Shown here: piece after piece, positions 1,967 to 12,352 of the stretch
How positions within the stretch are numbered: position 1 is the first letter of the stretch
Layout of the letters: every line of letters begins with the position of its first letter
Source of the DNA: Acidobacteriota bacterium
GTDB taxonomy: Bacteria > Acidobacteriota > UBA6911 > RPQK01 > JAJDTT01
Length of the DNA stretch: 64,000 nucleotides
NCBI GenBank assembly: GCA_965209055.1
Contig: OZ242374.1
Coordinates: 4,064,001-4,128,000, forward strand
Reading direction: 5' to 3'
Notes under the pieces: generated by a model
What the model was told of the DNA's origin: nothing
The model's input: only the letters and a program-made list of their open reading frames with translations
The model's database searches: none
Made by a program: the position numbers and the translations under genes

Positions 1967-3898
1967 GTGGGCACCGTCTTCACACCTCTGGACACCGGCG
2001 TCTTCTTCGCCGCCCTGGCTCTGGTGATGGGCATCGGCCTGTTGGCGTCGCGGCGCGAAAACACGGCGGAGGCCTATTTTCTGGCGGGCCGCAACATCCC
2101 CTGGTGGGGCGTGGCCGGTTCCATCTACGGCAGCAACGTCAGCGCCAATCACATGATCGGGATGATGGGCATTGGCTTCAGCGTCGGTTTCGCCCAGAGC
2201 CACTTCGAGCTGGGAGCCATCGCCGGCCTCATGCTCCTCTGCTACGGGTTCCTCCCGGTCTATCGAAAGTTGAGGATCTACACCCTCTCCGAATACCTGG
2301 AGCGCCGGTACGACCAGCGCAGCCGGGCCGCCTACGCCATCATCCTGGTCATCACCATGGCTGTGGTCCAACTGGTGCCCGCGCTCTACATCGGCGCCCG
2401 TTCGAGTTGCGTGCTCATGGGCGGAGCCGCGCTCGAGGAGATCGGTCCGGAATCGATTCCTGGAGAGTTGCAGGACGGGGAGGCGGGGTCAGCCGGTTCG
2501 TCCGGCGCGCCGGCCAAGTCGAAGCTGGGCGTGAATCGTTTTCACTACAGCGTCTTCGTTCTGATCCTGGCCGCCATCGCCACCAGCTACACCATTTTCG
2601 GGGGACTCAAGGCGGTCATCTGGACGGACGTGATCCAATCGGTCCTGCTGCTGTTGGGCGGCATTTTACTGGCGATCCTCACCTTTGACCGGCTGGGAGG
2701 TTGGAGCGCGCTGATGGACCTGGATCGAGCGGGGGCGGGAAAGATGCACCTCTATCTGCCCAGCGACCATCCGGACCTGCCCTGGACCGGGGTTCTGACC
2801 GGCCTGATGGCTCTGCACATCTTCTATTGGGGAACGAACCAGTTCATCGTCCAGCGTGCGCTGAGCGCCCGGAGCGACTCGCAGGCGCGGCTGGGCATCG
2901 TAGCGGCGGGGTTCCTCAAGTTATTGATCCCCTTCTTTTCCATCGCCAGCGGAGTGGCTGCCTTCTATCTGTTCCAGTCCGAGCTCCCGAATCGTTCCGT
3001 GGCCCCCGACACCGCCTTCACCGAGTTGATCGTTCTGGTGATACAGCCGCTGGGATTCGGGCTCATCGGCGTGATCGCGGCCGGCGCCGTGGGAGCCATC
3101 CTGTCCTCCATCGATTCCATGATGAACTCGGCCGCCACCATCGTCAGCATGGACCTCTACCGCCGGTATCTCAATCCGCAGGCCAGCGACGCCCAGATGA
3201 TCCGGGTGGGACGATGGTCCATCCTGGGGTTTGTCTCCCTCGCCAGCCTGTTCGCGCTTTTCGTCATCGATCCCAACTCGGAGAAGAATTTCTTCCTTCA
3301 GATCGTCGACTACCAGGGCTACCTGACCCCCGGGCTCCTGGTGGTCTTCCTGCTGGGGTTGTTCTGGCGGCGGACGACGCCCACCGCGGCCTTCGTCACC
3401 ATCGTCCTGGGCGTTTTCTATTCCTGGGCCGTGGAGTGGATCTACGTCGCGTACCTGGCGCCATTGCCCGCGGTGGCGGCGGTGACCGGCGAGGTGCTCA
3501 ACTTCTTTCACCGGGTCGTCGCGGTCGTTGTGCTGTGCACGTTGACAGCGGTCCTGGTGAGCCGCTTGGGCAGTTGTCCCGAGGAAAAAGCGAAGCTGAC
3601 CTGGGCTGGAGTGCTCGCCATTTCCCCCGAAGCAGTCAGGAATCTGCTGGCAGGCCTGGTGGCTTGGCTGGGGATCATGGCGGCTCTGGCGGCGGCTGTG
3701 GCCGGCGGCGGACTGTCCCCGGTAGCGGCGGCCCTTCTCGGTTCGGTCCTGACCCTGGGGATGTTCTGGTTGCTGCTGAGGCGCCGGGCCCGGAGCCGAG
3801 GGCCCGTGAACCTGGTGTCCTGGGCCGTTCGCCAAGACCGATGTTGGGCCGGTTGCCTCTGCGCGGCCGCCGTCTTCTTCCTCTTCTATTTTTATTGA
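1967..3898 (+). CDS. Sodium:solute symporter (SSS, SGLT-like)
   Basis: YFLAGRNIPWW, TLSEYLERRY, GGLKAVIWTDVIQ, YWGTNQFIVQRALSA, ILSSIDSMMNSAAT; many TM helices. Confidence 0.92.
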   Translation: MGTVFTPLDTGVFFAALALVMGIGLLASRRENTAEAYFLAGRNIPWWGVAGSIYGSNVSANHMIGMMGIGFSVGFAQSHFELGAIAGLMLLCYGFLPVYRKLRIYTLSEYLERRYDQRSRAAYAIILVITMAVVQLVPALYIGARSSCVLMGGAALEEIGPESIPGELQDGEAGSAGSSGAPAKSKLGVNRFHYSVFVLILAAIATSYTIFGGLKAVIWTDVIQSVLLLLGGILLAILTFDRLGGWSALMDLDRAGAGKMHLYLPSDHPDLPWTGVLTGLMALHIFYWGTNQFIVQRALSARSDSQARLGIVAAGFLKLLIPFFSIASGVAAFYLFQSELPNRSVAPDTAFTELIVLVIQPLGFGLIGVIAAGAVGAILSSIDSMMNSAATIVSMDLYRRYLNPQASDAQMIRVGRWSILGFVSLASLFALFVIDPNSEKNFFLQIVDYQGYLTPGLLVVFLLGLFWRRTTPTAAFVTIVLGVFYSWAVEWIYVAYLAPLPAVAAVTGEVLNFFHRVVAVVVLCTLTAVLVSRLGSCPEEKAKLTWAGVLAISPEAVRNLLAGLVAWLGIMAALAAAVAGGGLSPVAAALLGSVLTLGMFWLLLRRRARSRGPVNLVSWAVRQDRCWAGCLCAAAVFFLFYFY

Positions 3899-3901
3899 CC
3901 A

Positions 3902-4016
3902 GGAGCGGGGCGGCGGTTTCCCAACCGCCGATTCTCCCAGGGGCGGCGGTTTCCCAACCGCCGATTCTTAGACCGTCAAGGACCGCTGCGCACGGGCGGT
4001 TGGAAATCGCCGCTCC
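3902..4016. repeat. REP-like palindrome cluster (two direct copies and one inverted copy) between convergent genes
   Basis: GGGGCGGCGGTTTCCCAACCGCCGATTCT at 3907-3935 and 3940-3968; inverted GGGCGGTTGGAAATCGCCGCTCC at 3994-4016. Confidence 0.85.
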
Positions 4017-4033
4017 GCACGCTTTCCCCGGCT

Positions 4034-4861
4034 TCACCCCTTGGTCTGTTTCCGGACGGCCCTCCGGACGCCGGCCCGGAGCAGGGACGGAAACAGGAGT
4101 TTGACCAGAGGGAGGAATCCCATGGCCTTGGGGATGTAGAGGTTCCCTCCCGGTCCCGGAAGCGCTCCTACGATTCGGCGCGAACACTCGCGGACGCTCA
4201 CGCCACGCTCCCGCCGGGACCGATGCGAGGCGGAGCCCAGGGGTGACCCGTCGGCCGAGAGGGCGTGAGCCCGGAGCCGGGTGCTCCGGATCCATCCCGG
4301 CATCACGTTCAGAATGCGGACCTGGCCGTGCAACTCGGTCCGCAACGTTTCCAGGAGACCGTCCAGGGCGTGCTTGCTGGCGGTGTAGCCGCTGTGAAAC
4401 GGCACGCCCACCCGGCCCTGGACGGAGGAGATGGCCACGATCATGCCGTGTTGCTCCTTCAAGGCCGGTAGCGCGGGATGGATGCAGTGGACGGCCCCCA
4501 GGTAGTTCACTTCCATGAGCGTTCTGTAAATCTCGACGTTGCGAACCTGGTCGAAGAGGGTCCACATGCTCACGCCGGCGCTGAGGATGAGATAGTCCAG
4601 GGCTCCGAATTCGCCGGTCACCTTCGAGACCATTTCGCGGCACTGCCGGGCGTCGGTGACGTCGGTGGGGACAACGAGGCAGCCGGCTCCGGCTCGCCGG
4701 ACTCCGGCGGCCGTTTCCTGGAGCGAATGCTCCGAGCGGGAACCCAATCCCAGGTTCATTCCCTGGGCGGCCAGATCAAGAGCCAGTCTCTTCCCCAGGC
4801 CGGAGGAGGCGCCGGTGATGAGTCCCGTCTTGCCGTGGAATTTGGATTTTCCTTTTGGCAT
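4034..4861 (-). CDS. Short-chain dehydrogenase/reductase, DHRS7/DHRS7B-like
   Basis: ITGASSGLG cofactor loop; IVAISSVQG (catalytic Ser); YTASK (YxxxK). Confidence 0.9.
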   Translation of the reverse strand: MPKGKSKFHGKTGLITGASSGLGKRLALDLAAQGMNLGLGSRSEHSLQETAAGVRRAGAGCLVVPTDVTDARQCREMVSKVTGEFGALDYLILSAGVSMWTLFDQVRNVEIYRTLMEVNYLGAVHCIHPALPALKEQHGMIVAISSVQGRVGVPFHSGYTASKHALDGLLETLRTELHGQVRILNVMPGWIRSTRLRAHALSADGSPLGSASHRSRRERGVSVRECSRRIVGALPGPGGNLYIPKAMGFLPLVKLLFPSLLRAGVRRAVRKQTKG

Positions 4862-4908
4862 GGATCAAGTCGTGAGGTATCTCGTCCCGGCTGCGCGCGG
4901 GTGGGCAC

Positions 4909-6651
4909 TCAGTCGCCCAGGACGTTGTTTCGAATGCCGAAGATATTGTTGGGATCGGTGGACCGCTTGATCTCCTTCAGGAGCCGAATACCTCGGGAAG
5001 AGAGAGTGTGTTTCATGAACCCACTGCGGAGTTTACCGACTCCGTGGTGGTGGGAAATGGACCCGCCCGCATCGATGATGGCCTGGCGCAGTGAATGCTC
5101 GATCTCGCTGAAAACGGTTTCCGGGTCGTCCACGCCCTTGGCGTAGAAGCCGAACATGAAGTAGATACAGACTCCCGTGTGGTAGACCTGGGTGATTCGA
5201 TAGGAGACATAGGGGCGTCCCGGCAGTTCCAGCTCTTGGTGCCGGGCCTGAGCCCGGGCCACGACGGCGTCGCAAACCTGGTGTATTCGGTTCCAGGGCA
5301 CCGAGGTCTCGAAGGTCTCTCCCAGGATGTGGAAGTCCGACAGGAAGTCCCGGATATAGGCGATGGCGAAGGTGAGCCGATAGCCGCGGCGGCCGTTCTC
5401 GGCGCCGCCCGGCAGGCCTCCGTACTCATTGGCCAGTTTGTAGAGGCCCTTTTCCTGAAAGGCGACCTCTTCCTGGGATCCTTCCATGAGGATGGTGGCG
5501 GCGGACATCTGATGGGGATCGAACCCCTTGACCTTGAGCACAAAGAATTTCTTCAGCTTGTCCAACCAGGCGGCCGATCCGGTGGGCCTCGGCTTCAGGG
5601 CCTGGCCGAAACGGAATTGCACGTTGTCCACCAGACGGATGCTGGCGGGTACGAATCTGGTTTCAGCCAAGCTCCGAAGGAAGGCGACACCCTTGGCAAA
5701 GTCAGGAAAAACGAGGGAGCCATACTTGCGGACCTGGGGCCGGGGATGGATCTTGATGATGGCGCTGGTGATGAGACCCAGGTTGCCTTCGCTTCCAAAG
5801 AAAAGACTCTGGGGTTGCATCCCCATGGAGACGCGGGGAGAGGCCGTCAGATGCTCCACCCGGCCGGTGGGCGTGATCAGTGTCACTTTTTCGACAATGT
5901 CCTCGATGTTGCCGTATCGATTCTTCTTCATCCCGCTGGCATTGGTGGCGATCCATCCTCCCAGGGTGGAGAGTTCGATGCTGTCGGGTTCGTGACCGGA
6001 GACGAAACCGGCCTTCCCGAGCTGGCGTTCCAGTTCCTCCCCCGTGATGCCCGCTTGGACCAGCGCCCGCTGGTTCTCGCGATCGATCCATTCGACGCGA
6101 TTCATCCGCCTCATGTCGACGGAAACGATCATGCGTTCTTCCGAGGCCGGAAGTTTCAATGCGCAACTGACGCTGGTGCCGCCGCCGTAGGGAACGAGGC
6201 AGACATCTTGTGTCCGGGCCAGCGCCACCAGCATCGCACAATCTTTCTCCGCTTCGGGGTAGATGACCATGTCGGCGACACGGTCCAGTTGGGAATAGAC
6301 GACCCGGAAGACTTCGTCGGCACTGGTCTGCCCGTGGCTGTGGATGAGTCTCTCGCGGTCGTCGAAGGTGTATTGATCGGGGCGGTAGAAATTGGCCAGA
6401 CGACGGCAGAACCGGGTGTTCTTTCTGGGGGCGGGCACCGGTTTGGGATCGACCTCGGGTCGTTTTTTCTTGAAATCGGGATCGAGTCCCAGGACTTCTC
6501 TCACGTACGGGAGGAAGTCGCGCATCTTGTAGCCGCACAGCTCGTAACGGTCACCGGTGAGTGTCACCGAGTCGTCGTCGTTGAGCACGAATCGGGTGTC
6601 GGCGAATCCCCAACGGTGCCCCCAGATCGGATCGTTTTCTCGACTGGTCAT
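4909..6651 (-). CDS. Alkyl-dihydroxyacetonephosphate synthase (AGPS/ADPS)-like FAD enzyme
   Basis: PYGGGTSVS, GHEPDSIELSTLGGWIATNASGMKKNRYGNIED, GSEGNLG, ASIRLVDN, CIYF and C-terminal SISHHHGVGKLR, all characteristic of AGPS. Confidence 0.88.
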   Translation of the reverse strand: MTSRENDPIWGHRWGFADTRFVLNDDDSVTLTGDRYELCGYKMRDFLPYVREVLGLDPDFKKKRPEVDPKPVPAPRKNTRFCRRLANFYRPDQYTFDDRERLIHSHGQTSADEVFRVVYSQLDRVADMVIYPEAEKDCAMLVALARTQDVCLVPYGGGTSVSCALKLPASEERMIVSVDMRRMNRVEWIDRENQRALVQAGITGEELERQLGKAGFVSGHEPDSIELSTLGGWIATNASGMKKNRYGNIEDIVEKVTLITPTGRVEHLTASPRVSMGMQPQSLFFGSEGNLGLITSAIIKIHPRPQVRKYGSLVFPDFAKGVAFLRSLAETRFVPASIRLVDNVQFRFGQALKPRPTGSAAWLDKLKKFFVLKVKGFDPHQMSAATILMEGSQEEVAFQEKGLYKLANEYGGLPGGAENGRRGYRLTFAIAYIRDFLSDFHILGETFETSVPWNRIHQVCDAVVARAQARHQELELPGRPYVSYRITQVYHTGVCIYFMFGFYAKGVDDPETVFSEIEHSLRQAIIDAGGSISHHHGVGKLRSGFMKHTLSSRGIRLLKEIKRSTDPNNIFGIRNNVLGD

Positions 6652-6744
6652 CGCTATTTCCCATTTTACTGCTTGTGCCCGGTCACTTGCTGAAGTATGG
6701 CCGTGGATCGGGACACCGATTCCCGTGTTCTCGCGTGCGAGTGG

Positions 6745-6780
6745 TCACACCGAAAGTGATTTTTCACACCGAACGTGTGA
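6745..6780. promoter_or_regulatory. Candidate operator upstream of the AGPS gene
   Basis: Direct repeat TCACACCGAA at 6745-6754 and 6764-6773; second copy is part of palindrome TCACAC-N5-GTGTGA (6764-6780). Confidence 0.4.
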
Positions 6781-6882
6781 TGCGCAACTCCGGGCGCTTC
6801 GAATCAAGAGAGGCCGTCCGGTCTACCATGGTCATCACACTGCCGCCGTCCGCCAGCGCCCGGATCGGCTGGCGCCATGCGT

Positions 6883-7749
6883 TCAACGGACGAATCGAAA
6901 CCGGATTTCCCGGCGGGAGCGCGCGTGCCACCAGGTCTGGAAGTCCTCCGCGGGTCGAATTTCCGGGTTCAGGATACGGGCTCGAAGGGTGACCGGCAGC
7001 GGGTCCTGATCGAAGGGGTACGGGTCGACGGCGACTCGGCGTTCGCCGGTCGGAAGAACACGGAGTGAGACTCGATCGTTCCAACACCTGCGCGGAATCT
7101 CCCGGAGAGTTCGCTCCTTGTCTCCACCGAAACAGAGGTGGAGCGACAGCGCGTCGCAAAGTTGCAGCAGGCGGATGTGAGGGTTCAGGTGGCGCGGCTT
7201 GACGGCGGCGGCCCATTCGGGATCGCGCTTGATGCGTTCCGTGAGCAATCCCTGCAGAGCCTTTTGTTCGGCAACGAACTCCTTGGCTTCTTCCAGTTCT
7301 CTGCCTTTGGGTGGAGGCCACTCAGCGGGGATTCCGAACAGGGGATGGAGGAATGCCGGCGTGTGCCCGGCCTGGACGCGTGGCGCGTGCAGCCAGTAGG
7401 CATGCAAGCTGATGAGCAGGGCGATATAGGGATGGTGGTGCCGGAAGCGGGATACGCCCAAGTGCCACCGCCGGAGGCCGTCGGACTGTTTGAGGCTCGT
7501 CAGATCCAACGGGAGGCCGTCGGAGGGGTCGATTTGGGGGTCGGCCTCCCACTCCCACCAGCCGTTGTCGTGCTCGGCGATGGCGAGGACGGTTTCGGCT
7601 CCCAGCGCTTCGGGGTCGGGGAAGGGTGCGTATCGACCGGGGCGGGCGAATTCGTGGTTGCCCCAGTGGGCGGCCAGGTAGCCGGCGGCCGCAGCGTGCT
7701 CCGGCTGCGAGATGCACCAGAGTTCGCCGCCCACCGTGCGCTTGAGCAT
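6883..7749 (-). CDS. DUF3891 family protein
   Basis: Start refined to ATG 7749 (MLKRTVGG); ISQPEHAAAAGYLAAHWGN, AIAEHDNGW, LLISLH, LQLCDALSLHLC, VDPYPF. Confidence 0.8.
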   Translation of the reverse strand: MLKRTVGGELWCISQPEHAAAAGYLAAHWGNHEFARPGRYAPFPDPEALGAETVLAIAEHDNGWWEWEADPQIDPSDGLPLDLTSLKQSDGLRRWHLGVSRFRHHHPYIALLISLHAYWLHAPRVQAGHTPAFLHPLFGIPAEWPPPKGRELEEAKEFVAEQKALQGLLTERIKRDPEWAAAVKPRHLNPHIRLLQLCDALSLHLCFGGDKERTLREIPRRCWNDRVSLRVLPTGERRVAVDPYPFDQDPLPVTLRARILNPEIRPAEDFQTWWHARSRREIRFRFVR

Positions 7750-7784
7750 GGTTCCTCGGAACGGGTGATCCTGAGGCCGGAAGA

Positions 7785-7988
7785 TCAGCCTTTCGAAAGG
7801 CGGCCGGCCCTCCAGAGCAGGAAGCCTGCCGCTGAGAGCAGGAACAGCGTCAGCAGCAGCTTCACCGGCCAGAGATCGAAAGTGTAGTAAAAGGAGGCCA
7901 ACAACAAGAGGCCCACAAGCAACAGGAGCCAACCGCTGTATCGATATTCGCCGCGCCGTTTCCGCTCCTGGCTATCTCCGGTTTCCAT
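7785..7988 (-). CDS. Small two-TM membrane protein
   Basis: 67 aa with two hydrophobic helices; fills the gap in a co-oriented gene run. Confidence 0.55.
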   Translation of the reverse strand: METGDSQERKRRGEYRYSGWLLLLVGLLLLASFYYTFDLWPVKLLLTLFLLSAAGFLLWRAGRLSKG

Positions 7989-8079
7989 GCCTTTGGCAGC
8001 CTAGCAGCCTGAAGCCCAAGTCTCTACCGCTCCACCGGTGGCGTGGCGACTCCGTTGTCGGAACCGGGATTCCGCCGAG

Positions 8080-8970
8080 TCAGGATCCCGGAACCGGTTG
8101 CAGGCGTTCCCGCGCCACGCCGGTCAGGAGAAGTCGATGCCGGAGCGAGGTCAGCGTCCGCTTCATGGATGTTCGGGCGATGGATCTCACGAGGGGAGCC
8201 ACGATCGGCTTGAAGATGCCGGGGTAGCCGCGGCTCAGGGACAGCGATTCGCATTCCACCACCACGCCGCCGTCGATCTGCTGATATCTCCAGTAGGAAT
8301 TGAGGCCCCACAGGAATCCCCGGTCGTGTCCGGGGACCTTTTCACGCTCTTGGGGAGTGTGGAGTTTCTCCAGCTCGGCGATACGGGTGGCAATGCTCCG
8401 GCATGAGGCCCGGAACGGATCGTGCCAGCGGTAGTGGACCAGGTGTTCCGTGTTGTAGGCGACGGTGACGATTTTCTTGCGAACCAACTTCAGGTAGATG
8501 CGCAGGGAGTTATCGTCCCGTTCCAATATTTTCGTTTCCAACACGTCTTTTTGCGGAGGCACATTGGGGTCCGGATAGCGCAGGCGATGGATGACCTGTT
8601 CCAGACGGACGGAAGGAATCAGAATGGTTCCCCGCCAGTGGTGGATCATTCCACCGGGGACTTTGACGGTTTGGCCCCGGGCATCCTCCGTTTCCATCCG
8701 GGCGACCGTGACCTGGCCCGAACGGACCCGTTGCCAAGTCACCCGCGCTTCGTTCATCCGACCGAATTCGTGTCCGAGGAACCTCTTCTGCGATGCCAGC
8801 TCGTTGCCGATTCTTTCCTCGGTGAGCCGAACGTATTTGTCCCAGGCCAGCAGGGTCTCAGGTTTCAACTCGGCTCCGTGAACCCTTGAGCCCGGGAACA
8901 GGGGGTACCCCGCGGCCAGGACGATGGTTGCCAGCGCCAACCACACCTTGATCGATGAAATTGGTCTCAT
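8080..8970 (-). CDS. Exported hypothetical protein, START/SRPBCC-like (paralog of 12358-13317)
   Basis: Signal peptide; shares LKPET..D.YV, KKI.TV..NTEH, TRIAE, DRGF.W.LN.YW and SLSR with the paralog. Confidence 0.75.
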   Translation of the reverse strand: MRPISSIKVWLALATIVLAAGYPLFPGSRVHGAELKPETLLAWDKYVRLTEERIGNELASQKRFLGHEFGRMNEARVTWQRVRSGQVTVARMETEDARGQTVKVPGGMIHHWRGTILIPSVRLEQVIHRLRYPDPNVPPQKDVLETKILERDDNSLRIYLKLVRKKIVTVAYNTEHLVHYRWHDPFRASCRSIATRIAELEKLHTPQEREKVPGHDRGFLWGLNSYWRYQQIDGGVVVECESLSLSRGYPGIFKPIVAPLVRSIARTSMKRTLTSLRHRLLLTGVARERLQPVPGS

Positions 8971-8971
8971 T

Positions 8972-9397
8972 TCATTTCTCCTTGGCGGCCTGTCCGAAGA
9001 CCAGCCAATGGCTGGAAAAGTAGTTCAACGTGGAGCAGGAAGCGATGGCCATCAGGTTGGCCGGCAGGTAGTGAAAATTCAGGCCGGCCACCAGGAACTC
9101 CATCAGAAACAGGTTTTGGACGATGGAGACCGTGCCGACGGTCATGTTGAAGCGAAGCAACCGGCCCAAGACACTCGTTTCCGCCGTTGCGGTGCGGTCC
9201 GACCACGTCCAACGCTCATGCCACCAGAAGTTGTGCAACACCGCCATCTCCACGGCCAGGGCGGTGGCCGGCAGGTAGTGCAGGTTCCAGACACTGCGCA
9301 CAAACATGAGAACGGTGATCTGAACCAATACTCCCATCAGGCCGACGGCGTTGAATCGGGCCCATCGGATCAAGTGTTCCATCTCGGGATTCCTCAT
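8972..9397 (-). CDS. GtrA family protein
   Basis: RWARFNAVGLMGVLVQ, LHNFWWHERWTW, TLNYFSSHWLVF; four short TM helices; overlaps upstream stop (ATGA). Confidence 0.88.
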   Translation of the reverse strand: MRNPEMEHLIRWARFNAVGLMGVLVQITVLMFVRSVWNLHYLPATALAVEMAVLHNFWWHERWTWSDRTATAETSVLGRLLRFNMTVGTVSIVQNLFLMEFLVAGLNFHYLPANLMAIASCSTLNYFSSHWLVFGQAAKEK

Positions 9398-10170
9398 TTC
9401 CGGTTGCGGTGAGACCCGGTGAAGGCCGATCCCATGGGACCAAATCCGGTGGAGGGGAAACGTGGCAGGCTGATGGGAAGGGGCCGCTGGAAACGTGGCC
9501 TGGGTTCGGCGCGGTGCAGCCTTCGCGTGTGCCGGAGGGCGGAGACGGCGAATGTCAGGGCCAGACCCAGGATGCCGGCCATACCGCCGACGTCGAAGAG
9601 GTTGAAGGACCCCAGCTCTCCAAGTCCGACCACCGGCTTGTAGAAGAGAAAGACCGTGCCTGCGGCCAGCAGGAGTCGCAGTTCCGTCGGTCCGACCTTC
9701 AGGAAGGAGAGCCGAAAAACGCCGAGGACGTGGGTCGCGAGATAGATCTCGGCGGAGACCAGCAGATACGCGATCAGCAGAGCGAGCCCGACGATGGGGC
9801 TCATGAATTCGGATGCCGCCAGGCCCCCCAGCAAAAACAACGTTCCGGCCAGATCCAGGACATGATCGACGTAGTAGCCGTAACGCGGCCTCTGCTGGTT
9901 CCGCACCCGGGCCAGCGTGCCGTCCAGACTGTCACCGAACCAGTTCAGAACGAGGCCTGCCACGACCAGGAACAAGGCCCGCCGGTCCCAGGAAGCCGCG
10001 CAGTAGGAGAGGCCCACTCCCAGCATGGCCAGGACTCCCAGAAGGCTCAGATGATCGGCGTTGACCCAGGCCGGGAGCCGCCGGGCGATCCACACCAGGA
10101 GTCTCCTTTCGGCGGAGGCCAGGATGCTGTCGTGATGCCGTACGTGTTTGAAACCCTTTTGTCTCCTCAT
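9394..10170 (-). CDS. CDP-alcohol phosphatidyltransferase family protein
   Basis: Signature DSLDGTLAR...GYYVDHVLD; start refined to ATG 10170 with GGAGG RBS. Confidence 0.9.
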   Translation of the reverse strand: MRRQKGFKHVRHHDSILASAERRLLVWIARRLPAWVNADHLSLLGVLAMLGVGLSYCAASWDRRALFLVVAGLVLNWFGDSLDGTLARVRNQQRPRYGYYVDHVLDLAGTLFLLGGLAASEFMSPIVGLALLIAYLLVSAEIYLATHVLGVFRLSFLKVGPTELRLLLAAGTVFLFYKPVVGLGELGSFNLFDVGGMAGILGLALTFAVSALRHTRRLHRAEPRPRFQRPLPISLPRFPSTGFGPMGSAFTGSHRNRK

Positions 10171-10274
10171 GAAGCTCCTCCGTGATTCACTTCCGCAGCC
10201 GAAAACCCGCCGGGTGCGTCCCGGCAGATATCGGCCGCACCGAGAGGGAATGTGAGAACGGCGAGAAAAAGGGC

Positions 10275-11795
10275 TCAGGAGGATCGGTCGGATGAAGGTG
10301 GGACCGGTTCGAAGACGGCCCGTTCGGTGGCCGGCTCGACCAACAGGAAGACGACAGTGTAGCTGACGGCTACGGCGGCCAGGCATCCGGCCAGGAGTTG
10401 TTCCTGGGTGACGATGAGGGCGGCGCCGAGGAGGAGGCAGAGGGAGAAGAGTCCATCGACCCGCCGTTTCCATCCGCGGACCCGGTTCAGTTCCGCGTCG
10501 ATGGCGGAACGGTTGAACCTTGCCGTGAACAGGAGGTGGGTGCGGATGGTGCCGTTGCAAAGGGCACAGCCCAGCACCAGAAAGAAAAGACCCAGGGGCA
10601 GCGCCGTGGCGACCGGCGCCTGGGAGGCAGCCTGCTTGAACTTCCAGGCGCCGAAGACCATCACCGCGTAAAAAATGACCACGGCTGACTGGTGGAACAC
10701 CCACCAGCCGCCGTGAAGCGATGCACGGGATCCCAGAGTGTCCCTGGATTTGCCTGTGATCTTCGATTCGAGGCGCTGCACCTGCGCCAGGAGCTCTTCG
10801 GTGGATTGAAAACGGTCGTCCGGATCCTTCTCGAGACAGCGCGCGAGGATCGGTTCCAGCATGGACGGCGGCCCGACGGCGTCGGACCGGCCGGGTCTGC
10901 CCTCCAGGATCCTGGCCACCGTCACCAAAGGAGTCTTGCCTTCGAACGGGTGGCGGCCCGTTGCCAGCTCGTACAACAACATTCCGAAAGAGAAGAGGTC
11001 GGAGCGGAAGTCGGCTTCCTGTCCCTCCAACTGCTCGGGGGACATGTAGACCGGGGTGCCGAGAACGGTTCCTTCCTGCGTCAGGCGCTGGCTGTGGGAG
11101 GGTTCCGGCGTGGGAAGCGCCAGACCGAAATCGACGATCTTCAGATTCCCCTGCGCATCGAGTAAAACGTTTTCCGGTTTGAGGTCCCGATGGACCACTC
11201 CGTTGGAGTGGGCGGCCCTGAGGCCCTGGCACACCTGAGTCGCTACCCGGAAGAGTTCGGGGAGGGGAACAGGCCCCTGCTCGATTCGCGATCGCAGATT
11301 CTCCCCCTCGACGTACTCGCCGGAGATATAGAGCCCACCGTCAATTTCTTCCAAGGCATAGACGGCCGCGATGGCGGGGTGATTGAGGGAAGCCGCGACT
11401 TTGGCCTCGCGGCGGAGCCGCCGCCGTTGTTCGACGTCGCGGCCCACGAGTGGAGAGACTGCCTTGAGAGCCACGGTACGGTCCAGACGCGTGTCGACGG
11501 CGCGGTAGACGACCCCCATGCCACCCCGTCCCGCCTCGCCGAGAATCCGGTACGGGCCCAGTGTGTCCCCTGCCGTCAGGAGACTGGCGGCCGTTTCGAC
11601 GCCGGCTGGTTGAAACAGGTTCCCGTCCAGGAAGGCGGTTTCAGAGTCGTGGTGAGACAGAAGCGACAGGACCTCGCGGGTCAGCTCCGTGTCGGGGGAA
11701 CATTCCCGCCGGACAAAGTCCTCCCGCGATTCCGAATCGTGTTCCAAGGCGGCCTCGAAGATCTCCTTGACTCGCTGAAACGTTCTCGGGTTCAT
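10275..11795 (-). CDS. Hanks-type Ser/Thr protein kinase with C-terminal multi-TM domain
   Basis: GRGGMGVVY, VALK, HRDLKPEN, DFG, GTPVYMSPEQ; N-terminal FQRVKEIFEAALE helix typical of kinases paired with TIGR02999 sigmas; ATG 11795 overlaps sigma stop. Confidence 0.92.
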   Translation of the reverse strand: MNPRTFQRVKEIFEAALEHDSESREDFVRRECSPDTELTREVLSLLSHHDSETAFLDGNLFQPAGVETAASLLTAGDTLGPYRILGEAGRGGMGVVYRAVDTRLDRTVALKAVSPLVGRDVEQRRRLRREAKVAASLNHPAIAAVYALEEIDGGLYISGEYVEGENLRSRIEQGPVPLPELFRVATQVCQGLRAAHSNGVVHRDLKPENVLLDAQGNLKIVDFGLALPTPEPSHSQRLTQEGTVLGTPVYMSPEQLEGQEADFRSDLFSFGMLLYELATGRHPFEGKTPLVTVARILEGRPGRSDAVGPPSMLEPILARCLEKDPDDRFQSTEELLAQVQRLESKITGKSRDTLGSRASLHGGWWVFHQSAVVIFYAVMVFGAWKFKQAASQAPVATALPLGLFFLVLGCALCNGTIRTHLLFTARFNRSAIDAELNRVRGWKRRVDGLFSLCLLLGAALIVTQEQLLAGCLAAVAVSYTVVFLLVEPATERAVFEPVPPSSDRSS

Positions 11796-12352
11796 GCGTT
11801 CAACTCGCGTCGCAACCAAGCTCGGGAGAGCGCCCACCAGCGTTTGGTGGTGGCGGGGGAGATACCCATGACCTCGCTGGTTTCCGCTAGTGTCAGGCCT
11901 CCGAAGAACCTGAGCTCGACGAGTCGGGCCTGTTTTGGATCCAACTCGGCGAGAGCCCGCAGTGCTTGGTCCAGAGCCATGAAATCGATGGATCGCGCAT
12001 TCTGGCCCAGAGTCTCGTCGATGAGAGTCACCGCATGCTGCCCGCCGCCCCGCTTCCGGGCCATTCTCGCTCGTGCCCGTTCCACCAGGATCTGCCGCAT
12101 GGAACGGGCCGCGATACCCAGCAAATGAGCTCTGTCTTTCCAATTCACCTGCTTCTCGCCGAGGAGTCGAAGGTACGCCTCATGGACCAGGGCCGTGGCG
12201 GGCAGCGTCTGGCGGGCCTCCCGGCGCATGTAGTTGCCGGCCAACCTTCTCAGTTCCTGATAGACAATGGGGAAGAGTTGAGAAAGGGCGTTCTCATCTC
12301 CGGATCTGGACTCGTGGATCAGCCGCGCCATTGCCTGGGGATTCTCAGGCAC
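11792..12352 (-). CDS. ECF sigma factor, TIGR02999/ECF43-like (kinase-associated)
   Basis: YQELRRLA, TLPATALVHEAYLRL, MRQILVERAR...KRGGG, VELRFFGGLT..ET..VMGISPAT. Confidence 0.9.
   Translation of the reverse strand: MPENPQAMARLIHESRSGDENALSQLFPIVYQELRRLAGNYMRREARQTLPATALVHEAYLRLLGEKQVNWKDRAHLLGIAARSMRQILVERARARMARKRGGGQHAVTLIDETLGQNARSIDFMALDQALRALAELDPKQARLVELRFFGGLTLAETSEVMGISPATTKRWWALSRAWLRRELNA

Follow-up and report, generated by a model that had tools for sequence, protein, structure and literature searches.

The window analysed here is a stretch of 64,000 nucleotides (G000:C1:4064001-4128000) in the single-contig genome, 6.08 Mb in length, of an Acidobacteriota bacterium, and our subject is a pair of genes within it, which encode a homologue of alkyl-dihydroxyacetone-phosphate (alkyl-DHAP) synthase, or alkylglycerone-phosphate synthase (AGPS), and a short-chain dehydrogenase/reductase (SDR). 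The agps gene (4909..6651, minus strand) starts with ATG and encodes P0001, a protein of 580 aa identified by its Pfam and PDB matches; the SDR gene (4034..4861, minus strand) also starts with ATG and encodes P0002, a classical NADP-type SDR of 275 aa and a candidate acyl/alkyl-DHAP (glycerone-phosphate) reductase. The spacer between the two (4862..4908, minus strand), read directly from the letters, measures 47 bp, in agreement with the first-pass annotation, which had described two co-oriented genes at this distance. In a simple scan of positions 3700-7100 no promoter-like site was found, terminator-like sites did not exceed shuffled counts, and the spacer itself contained neither. The two genes are probably co-transcribed. 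In the sponge metatranscriptome run X20, eight short contigs cover parts of agps and SDR (90-95% and 95-99% alike), which is not proof of transcription or co-transcription because none of the contigs spans the spacer, the run consists of contigs only, and DNA carry-over is possible.

P0001 has the Pfam domains FAD_binding_4 (PF01565, residues 127-268, 2.8e-36) and FAD-oxidase_C (PF02913, residues 304-571, 1.3e-38). Among all PDB chains, guinea-pig AGPS 4bby was matched with an E-value of 1.2e-165 and 555.8 bits (query 10-575, chain 93-656), in an alignment that covers the AGPS-specific N-terminal domain, and Dictyostelium AGPS 2uuu with 6e-88 and 299 bits; the next PDB family was D-lactate dehydrogenase (1e-21, 80.6 bits). 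All of the AGPS motifs listed in the first-pass annotation are present, namely GHEPDS at 219, ASGMKKN at 238, YGNIED at 246, CIYF at 495 and SHHHGVGKLR at 533. Moreover, H534-H536 (HHH loop), R339 (in ASIRL) and Y497 (in CIYF) align with guinea-pig residues 615-617, Arg419 and the tyrosine of the CIYF segment, the last two of which have roles in AGPS according to the structural literature. His616/617 are named as AGPS active-site residues in a passage of PMC13019191. The flavoprotein could also be viewed as an AGPS-like dehydrogenase of the YgcU/D-lactate-dehydrogenase kind, which acts on a small phosphorylated compound and has the SDR as an unrelated neighbour. The NCBIfam GlcD model TIGR00387 does match P0001, with 147.9 bits against a cut-off of 567.9 and hence far below it, while the full-length match to mammalian AGPS reaches 555.8 bits against 80.6 for D-lactate dehydrogenase, no kinase, GlpABC or Fe-S partner stands near the gene, and the partners conserved beside AGPS elsewhere are an acyltransferase, a reductase of the fatty acyl reductase (FAR) type and the SDR; we consider this view extremely unlikely. 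By these scores the FAD protein is not a lactate or glycolate oxidase, and, judged by its sequence, P0001 is a true AGPS.

AGPS is by no means confined to eukaryotes. When prokaryotic species were scanned, each represented by a single genome, at least 571 confirmed relatives of P0001 emerged; with so many bacterial species genomes bearing close relatives, "eukaryote-type" is a misnomer, and the label "eukaryote-type/peroxisome-like" given to the module in the first-pass annotation was misleading. The AGPS loci examined below are the best 80 of the at least 571 (58-97% identity), that is, the closest ones and not a random sample, and they span Acidobacteriota, Neomarinimicrobiota, Cyanobacteria, Chloroflexota, Poribacteria, Eremiobacterota, a Trueperaceae metagenome-assembled genome (MAG) and others. 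The distribution of agps within the phylum is patchy: of 401 sampled genomes (thresholds E <= 1e-100 for AGPS and E <= 1e-45 for the SDR orthologue), 21 carried AGPS, 17 of these 21 belonging to the order of the window. AGPS homologues have been published from Acidobacteria subdivision 4 and from sponge-symbiont MAGs (PMC11868695, preprint 10.64898/2026.06.23.733905 and PMC13159169), with a role that is stated to be unproven. A passage of PMC13012113 states that AGPS has too little signal.

We observed that the SDR accompanies AGPS in a large part of these loci. Counting as directly downstream a P0002 relative located at most 400 bp 3' of AGPS on the same strand, we found the SDR in this position in 41 of the 80 loci (40 of the 78 whose downstream sequence extends for 700 bp or more, and one partial locus): 27/29 in Acidobacteriota, 7/7 in Neomarinimicrobiota, 3/3 in loci labelled "uncultured bacterium", 1/1 in Poribacteria, 1/1 in Trueperaceae and 2/8 in Cyanobacteria, with 0/27 in Chloroflexota, 0/2 in Eremiobacterota, 0/1 in a Burkholderiales MAG and 0/1 in a "Rhizobium sp." MAG. 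In four more cyanobacterial loci, a weaker match to the SDR lies at some other place in the locus. In the order of the window, the same 17 genomes of the 401-genome sample hold AGPS and the SDR orthologue, the coordinates placing the SDR directly after AGPS in 17/17, and 11 other genomes have neither (a count that includes the unpublished G049). P0002 had 44 tblastn matches in its own genome, the best paralogue being 32% identical, whereas the SDRs linked to AGPS in other phyla show 39-57% identity with P0002. From the 44 matches and an assumed number of about 5000 genes, the chance of an SDR at a given neighbour position is estimated at about 1%; adjacency in 41/80 loci and in 17/17 genomes of the order is far above this value, and the pairing is therefore not due to chance. 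Thus the pairing is kept in relatives and in other phyla, including all AGPS-bearing genomes of the order.

P0002 matches Pfam adh_short with 149 bits and the NCBIfam model NF004825 (PRK06181), a family without assigned function, with 252.1 bits over residues 7-273 (cut-off 215). An alignment of 16 AGPS-linked SDRs has invariant TGASSGxG (T16-G23), R42, NAG, N119, S145, Y159 and K163, and the TGxxxGxG motif and the N-S-Y-K catalytic residues of classical SDRs are present in P0002, as are the segments quoted for it in the first-pass annotation (IVAISSVQGRVGVPFHSGYTASKHA at 141 and HALSADGS at 199). An arginine after the second strand, such as R42, is linked to NADP preference in SDRs. In the AlphaFold2 model of P0002 (predicted local distance difference test, pLDDT, 90.9) the first strand begins at residue 12, and two helices are formed by residues 245-274, in the C-terminal segment that is conserved among the AGPS-linked SDRs. 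P0002 is without the N-terminal extension of animal DHRS7 (about 35-45 residues, alignments beginning at DHRS7 residues 33-50), which is a membrane anchor in the animal proteins.

DHRS7 and DHRS7B are described as acyl/alkyl-glycerone-phosphate reductases in PMC13200781. We built a tree of 53 proteins (IQ-TREE, LG+G4, 1000 ultrafast bootstraps), made up of the 16 AGPS-linked SDRs, 12 animal DHRS7 proteins and the 25 best paralogues from the genome of the window. Support is given as ultrafast bootstrap (UFBoot) and Shimodaira-Hasegawa-like approximate likelihood ratio (SH-aLRT) values. Fifteen AGPS-linked SDRs, all except that of Planktothrix, formed one clade (100/99) and DHRS7 another (100/100), and these two clades were sisters (97/94) in a tree whose outgroups were own paralogues only, without DHRS7B, 11beta-HSD1 or other eukaryotic SDRs. 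A quick search under the posterior mean site frequency (PMSF) mixture model gave the same sister split (SH-aLRT 93). The Planktothrix SDR, which is 30% identical to P0002, belongs to another subclade and groups in the tree with two of the own-genome paralogues. The first-pass annotation had likened P0002 to DHRS7B; in this tree P0002 groups with animal DHRS7 and not with the 25 paralogues, and it is nearer to DHRS7 than to any other SDR of its own genome, which falls short of orthology. Among the homologues near P0002 in length, the best 120 of 5312 were bacterial SDRs only, and an Atlas search with P0002 gave bacterial clusters only. Among longer proteins, a tandem-SDR protein of the ostracod Darwinula was 38% identical to P0002 over 175 residues, and the second domain of this protein retrieves the animal family "dehydrogenase/reductase SDR family member 7".

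Comparison with solved structures bears on a different view of the SDR, in which AGPS is a true ether-bond synthase, the SDR carries out another step of that pathway, such as the reduction of fatty aldehyde to the alcohol needed by AGPS, and another enzyme reduces alkyl-DHAP. The substrate of the SDR is not fixable from sequence alone, and the best solved match of P0002 is the aldehyde-reducing clavaldehyde dehydrogenase, which ranked first both in a PDB profile search (E 1.3e-46) and in Foldseek; in addition, the 1670-aa protein upstream of the Planktothrix pair ends in a NAD_binding_4 domain, and terminal reductase domains of this type may release aldehyde. With the single sequence, the PDB search left FabG and 11beta-HSD1 tied, and 11beta-HSD1, considered as the closest PDB relative by sequence, was not set apart from FabG-type and other SDRs. 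11beta-HSD1 also fills nearly all of ranks 2-50 in Foldseek, which may be taken as a weak hint, that enzyme having very many entries. Against a role in aldehyde reduction, the SDR is retained beside four-electron reductases that yield the alcohol themselves (the FAR with Sterile domain of the ElbD-like proteins described below, and the HMG-CoA-reductase-like enzymes treated in part of PMC11948995); a keto-reductase is needed by every AGPS route, and no other candidate for it is conserved beside AGPS; and the SDR clade is sister to DHRS7, an acyl/alkyl-glycerone-phosphate reductase. We therefore regard a different step for the SDR as unlikely, and the reading of P0002 as a candidate acyl/alkyl-DHAP reductase as the better one.

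The first-pass annotation had noted that no DHAP acyltransferase or fatty acyl-CoA reductase lies in the window and had suggested that the module uses genes elsewhere or host-derived fatty alcohols. Indeed, all genome hits to PF01553 (acyltransferase) and PF07993 (FAR type) are outside 4064001-4128000. Of the two proposed sources, genes elsewhere were found: a protein of 1481 aa (P0123; G000:C1:1434995-1439437), encoded 2.6 Mb from the window, contains NAD_binding_4 (40-381), Sterile (485-558), AMP-binding (588-993), PP-binding (1163-1229) and Acyltransferase (1280-1413) domains. By its predicted domains it has the architecture of ElbD, that is, a FAR, an acyl-activating domain, an acyl carrier protein (ACP) and an acyltransferase on one chain. 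This ElbD-like protein probably supplies the fatty-alcohol and acyl-DHAP steps in trans, and since FAR and acyltransferase functions are placed on it, host-derived alcohols need not be invoked. An elb-like cluster around its gene was considered and rejected: of the ten flanking open reading frames (ORFs), only F420 genes matched Pfam. No match to an HGD-D (PlsA/Ger-type) domain or to an HMG-CoA_red gene (HMG-CoA-reductase-like, FcrA type) was found in the genome.

Relatives bring the ElbD-like protein and the pair together. In the Poribacteria locus L073 a fusion of ElbD build, with 38% full-length identity to the ElbD-like protein of our genome, directly precedes AGPS-SDR. Within the order of the window, ElbD-like, AGPS and SDR genes are contiguous on one strand in G112; G353 has all of them within 2.3 kb, its ElbD-like gene pointing towards AGPS-SDR in convergent orientation from 1.4 kb past the SDR. 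By their coordinates, the ElbD-like genes of G336 and G159 lie about 3.2-3.3 kb from AGPS-SDR. ElbD-like orthologues beside AGPS-SDR in relatives suggest one joined route. In a separate region of the genome (G000:C1:4817580-4820129; L101 581-3085, minus strand), we also noted an 834-aa fusion of a FAR-type NAD_binding_4 domain with Sulfotransfer_3, a combination which suggests sulfated fatty alcohols or related lipids.

The setting of the organism gives some ground for another source of substrates. Sponge metagenome contigs from three further studies contain the whole locus, with 33-101 letters that differ over 3943/4013-6900 (about 96.6-99% identity), which makes a sponge-associated acidobacterium the most likely identity of the organism. 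Instead of serving de novo synthesis, the pair could then use fatty alcohols imported from the sponge host, or remodel ether-lipid intermediates of the host, with the ElbD-like protein in a separate route. Such an arrangement would fit the near-identical DNA in sponge metagenomes, the richness of sponges in ether lipids mentioned in preprint 10.64898/2026.06.23.733905, the location of the ElbD-like gene 2.6 Mb away and its presence in 61/61 genomes of the order with or without AGPS, and the description of ElbD and AGPS as two pathways of Myxococcus xanthus in a section of PMC9131029. It is at odds with the ElbD-like orthologues that adjoin AGPS-SDR in G112, G353 and Poribacteria, or, in G336 and G159, are no more than about 3.3 kb away from it, and with cassettes that have their own reductase and acyltransferase in free-living marine and cyanobacterial lineages. 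On balance we think it improbable that the pair depends on the host in this way, and supply by the ElbD-like protein is preferred.

In these cassettes of other phyla, AGPS-SDR is accompanied by an acyltransferase (PF01553) and by a reductase of either the FAR or the HMG-CoA-reductase type. In Neomarinimicrobiota (L078 4044-8531) and Trueperaceae (L087 3546-8597), genes for an HMG-CoA-reductase-like protein, an acyltransferase (250 aa), AGPS and the SDR run in one direction, and the HMG-CoA-reductase-like gene is probably a fatty acyl-CoA reductase of FcrA type; according to PMC11948995, FcrA, which is HMG-CoA-reductase-like, reduces fatty acyl-CoA and may supply AGPS. In Planktothrix (L034 225-10107), a 1670-aa AMP-binding/acyl-CoA-dehydrogenase/ACP/NAD_binding_4 protein and an acyltransferase stand before AGPS, and the SDR, CdsA and a CDP-alcohol phosphatidyltransferase after it, in a cluster on the scale of seven genes. 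In another acidobacterial lineage (G268; L105 5708-9878), AGPS stands without the SDR and directly follows a divergent acyltransferase and a separately encoded FAR of 556 aa; an apparent FAR-AGPS fusion in this genome was discarded, since the 1238-aa open frame resolves into the FAR gene and, after it, the AGPS gene, which do not share a reading frame. In eight Chloroflexota loci (L080 7848-8621 and seven more), a conserved protein of about 257 aa without Pfam family is encoded about 30 bp downstream of AGPS, the position held by the SDR in other phyla.

Taken together, we predict with fair, though not high, confidence that the pair most likely makes 1-O-alkyl-glycerol-3-phosphate, as a cassette for the two committed steps of an ether-lipid route of AGPS type. 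The ElbD-like protein would load activated fatty acid on its own ACP, its FAR domain would turn part of this pool into fatty alcohol, and its acyltransferase domain would acylate DHAP. AGPS (4909-6651) would then swap the acyl chain on 1-acyl-DHAP for the fatty alcohol to give 1-O-alkyl-DHAP, and the SDR (4034-4861) would use NADPH to reduce the keto group at C2; the resulting 1-O-alkyl-sn-glycerol-3-phosphate would enter ordinary phospholipid assembly (PlsC/CdsA-type steps). The identities of the genes, their adjacency and co-occurrence and the position of the SDR in the tree are shown here; what the substrates, the cofactor and the lipid products are, that ElbD is linked to the pair and that the two genes are co-transcribed, we infer. 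No CarF/PEDS1 (PF10520) match was found in the genome, an absence that is not validated because the control genomes were silent too; with no CarF/PEDS1-type desaturase found, the products would be alkyl (plasmanyl) lipids and not plasmalogens. The consecutive AGPS-type alkyl-ether steps put forward in the first-pass annotation are supported at their core, by the AGPS match, the conserved pairing and the grouping of the SDR with DHRS7.

Several findings weigh against this reading, the unvalidated CarF/PEDS1 absence and the first rank of clavaldehyde dehydrogenase in the profile search among them. The sister relation to DHRS7 comes from limited sampling, without DHRS7B and 11beta-HSD1. When the 12 DHRS7 proteins were searched back against the genome of the window, P0002 came first for only 5 and otherwise ranked second (5 queries), third (1) or fourth (1), with margins mostly small, and the comparison may be said to favour kinship of P0002 and DHRS7 weakly. 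The ElbD-like protein, which occurs in all 61 genomes of the order (a count including G049), AGPS-less families among them, is not dedicated to AGPS. Outside the order, four genomes have AGPS (48-52% identity) without the SDR, and nine have weaker SDR-like matches (37-42% identity) without AGPS. Since the SDR is lacking downstream of AGPS in all 27 Chloroflexota and both Eremiobacterota loci and in 2 of the 29 acidobacterial ones, it is not obligatory for AGPS, or another reductase substitutes for it. Further, the SDR-linked loci are confined to one half of the AGPS tree (midpoint-rooted FastTree), which indicates few independent origins of the pairing.

A more far-reaching proposal joins three statements: that AGPS-SDR is the bacterial counterpart, possibly the source, of the two eukaryotic steps; that the SDR is a true DHRS7/DHRS7B orthologue; and that the ElbD-type protein is a "FARAT" (FAR-GNPAT fusion) feeding AGPS. 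We put this forward as a tentative possibility, doubtful in its entirety. If it were true, the reduction of alkyl-DHAP would have a bacterial origin in common with AGPS, the ElbD and AGPS routes, now described as independent, would merge, and the missing bacterial alkyl-DHAP reductase would have a name. PMC13012113 argues for a bacterial origin of eukaryotic plasmalogen synthesis and considers FAR, GNPAT, AGPS and PEDS1, not the reductase step, with no occurrence of "DHRS7B" in its text. The sister relation to DHRS7 suggests that the reductase step should join such origin-of-plasmalogen analyses.

The surroundings of the pair include further features. Between the SDR stop and a convergent symporter gene, positions 3906-3975 hold two tandem copies of a GC-rich hairpin of about 33 nt, the 18-nt core of which has 51 genomic copies, 23 on one strand and 28 on the other, and numerous unrelated contigs from metagenomes stack on this element. 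It looks like a REP-like (repetitive extragenic palindromic) dispersed palindrome and possibly acts as a terminator. Upstream of agps, all on the minus strand, are genes for a DUF3891 protein (6883-7932), a 296-aa protein without Pfam family (8080-8970), GtrA (8972-9397), a CDP-alcohol phosphatidyltransferase (about 9394-10240) and a Ser/Thr kinase (10275-12143). The whole series (6883-12143) joins AGPS-SDR in the closest relatives only, being complete in 6/80 loci, with DUF3891 present in 7/80.

The bacterial AGPS route is already known; new here are the conserved DHRS7-like partner of AGPS and its tie to ElbD. We found no publication of the conserved AGPS-SDR adjacency or of a named bacterial alkyl-DHAP reductase, although supplementary files may list such neighbours, and "short-chain dehydrogenase" has no occurrence in the available text of preprint 10.64898/2026.06.23.733905. 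How M. xanthus gets from fatty acid to alkyl ether lipid is called unknown in part of PMC9131029, and the conserved DHRS7-like SDR beside AGPS is a concrete candidate for the bacterial acyl/alkyl-DHAP reductase. Likewise, ether-lipid producers and routes in Acidobacteria and sponge holobionts are stated to be unresolved in passages of PMC11868695 and preprint 10.64898/2026.06.23.733905; the genome analysed here, which occurs in sponge metagenomes, carries AGPS, the SDR and the ElbD-like protein, the markers HGD-D (PlsA/Ger) and HMG-CoA_red (FcrA) not being found in it. The pair thus offers an evolutionary lead together with a testable candidate for the missing bacterial enzyme.

Compared with the animal route, in which AGPS (EC 2.5.1.26) is followed by DHRS7B/PexRAP and DHRS7 (EC 1.1.1.101), the window encodes the same types of enzyme for two consecutive steps. 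P0001 is alignable with animal AGPS over nearly its full length and keeps the HHH loop, and like the animal route, that of the window needs fatty alcohol and acyl-DHAP. Unlike in animals, the two genes are adjacent and probably co-transcribed; P0001 lacks the first 90 or so residues of guinea-pig AGPS (the alignment starting from chain residue 93), and P0002 has two C-terminal helices instead of the N-terminal extension of about 35-45 residues in animal DHRS7. Moreover, FAR and acyltransferase are on one ElbD-like multidomain protein with an ACP, unlike in animals, and there is no PEDS1/CarF match (with the controls silent).

Bacterial systems offer closer parallels. According to passages of PMC9131029 and PMC13012113, the M. 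xanthus operon MXAN_1676-1675-1674 encodes AGPS, the FARAT fusion and a NAD-epimerase-type protein, and MXAN_1676 is about 42% identical to human AGPS (PMC9131029, same section). As in M. xanthus, the AGPS homologue of the window forms a probable operon with a nucleotide-dependent reductase-type gene, and an ElbD-type protein is encoded in the same genome (PMC9131029 and PMC13012113, in part). Unlike in the M. xanthus operon, the partner is a classical DHRS7-like SDR and not of the epimerase/dehydratase type, and no FARAT gene stands beside AGPS, the window having no PF07993 or PF01553 match. For the ElbD route (elbA-E of M. xanthus, and elb-like clusters of Acidobacteria subdivision 4 and sponge symbionts), the likeness is one of domains, the 1481-aa protein sharing the domain set; poribacterial and acidobacterial elbD homologues in sponges are reported in a part of preprint 10.64898/2026.06.23.733905. 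The published account treats ElbD as independent of AGPS, whereas in some relatives ElbD-like orthologues lie directly beside AGPS-SDR. Finally, the four-gene cassette of Marinimicrobia and others (HMG-CoA-reductase-like protein of FcrA type, acyltransferase, AGPS and SDR) shares the AGPS-SDR core, with SDRs 44-57% identical to P0002, but the genome of the window differs from it in having no gene of the HMG-CoA_red family and no acyltransferase next to AGPS.

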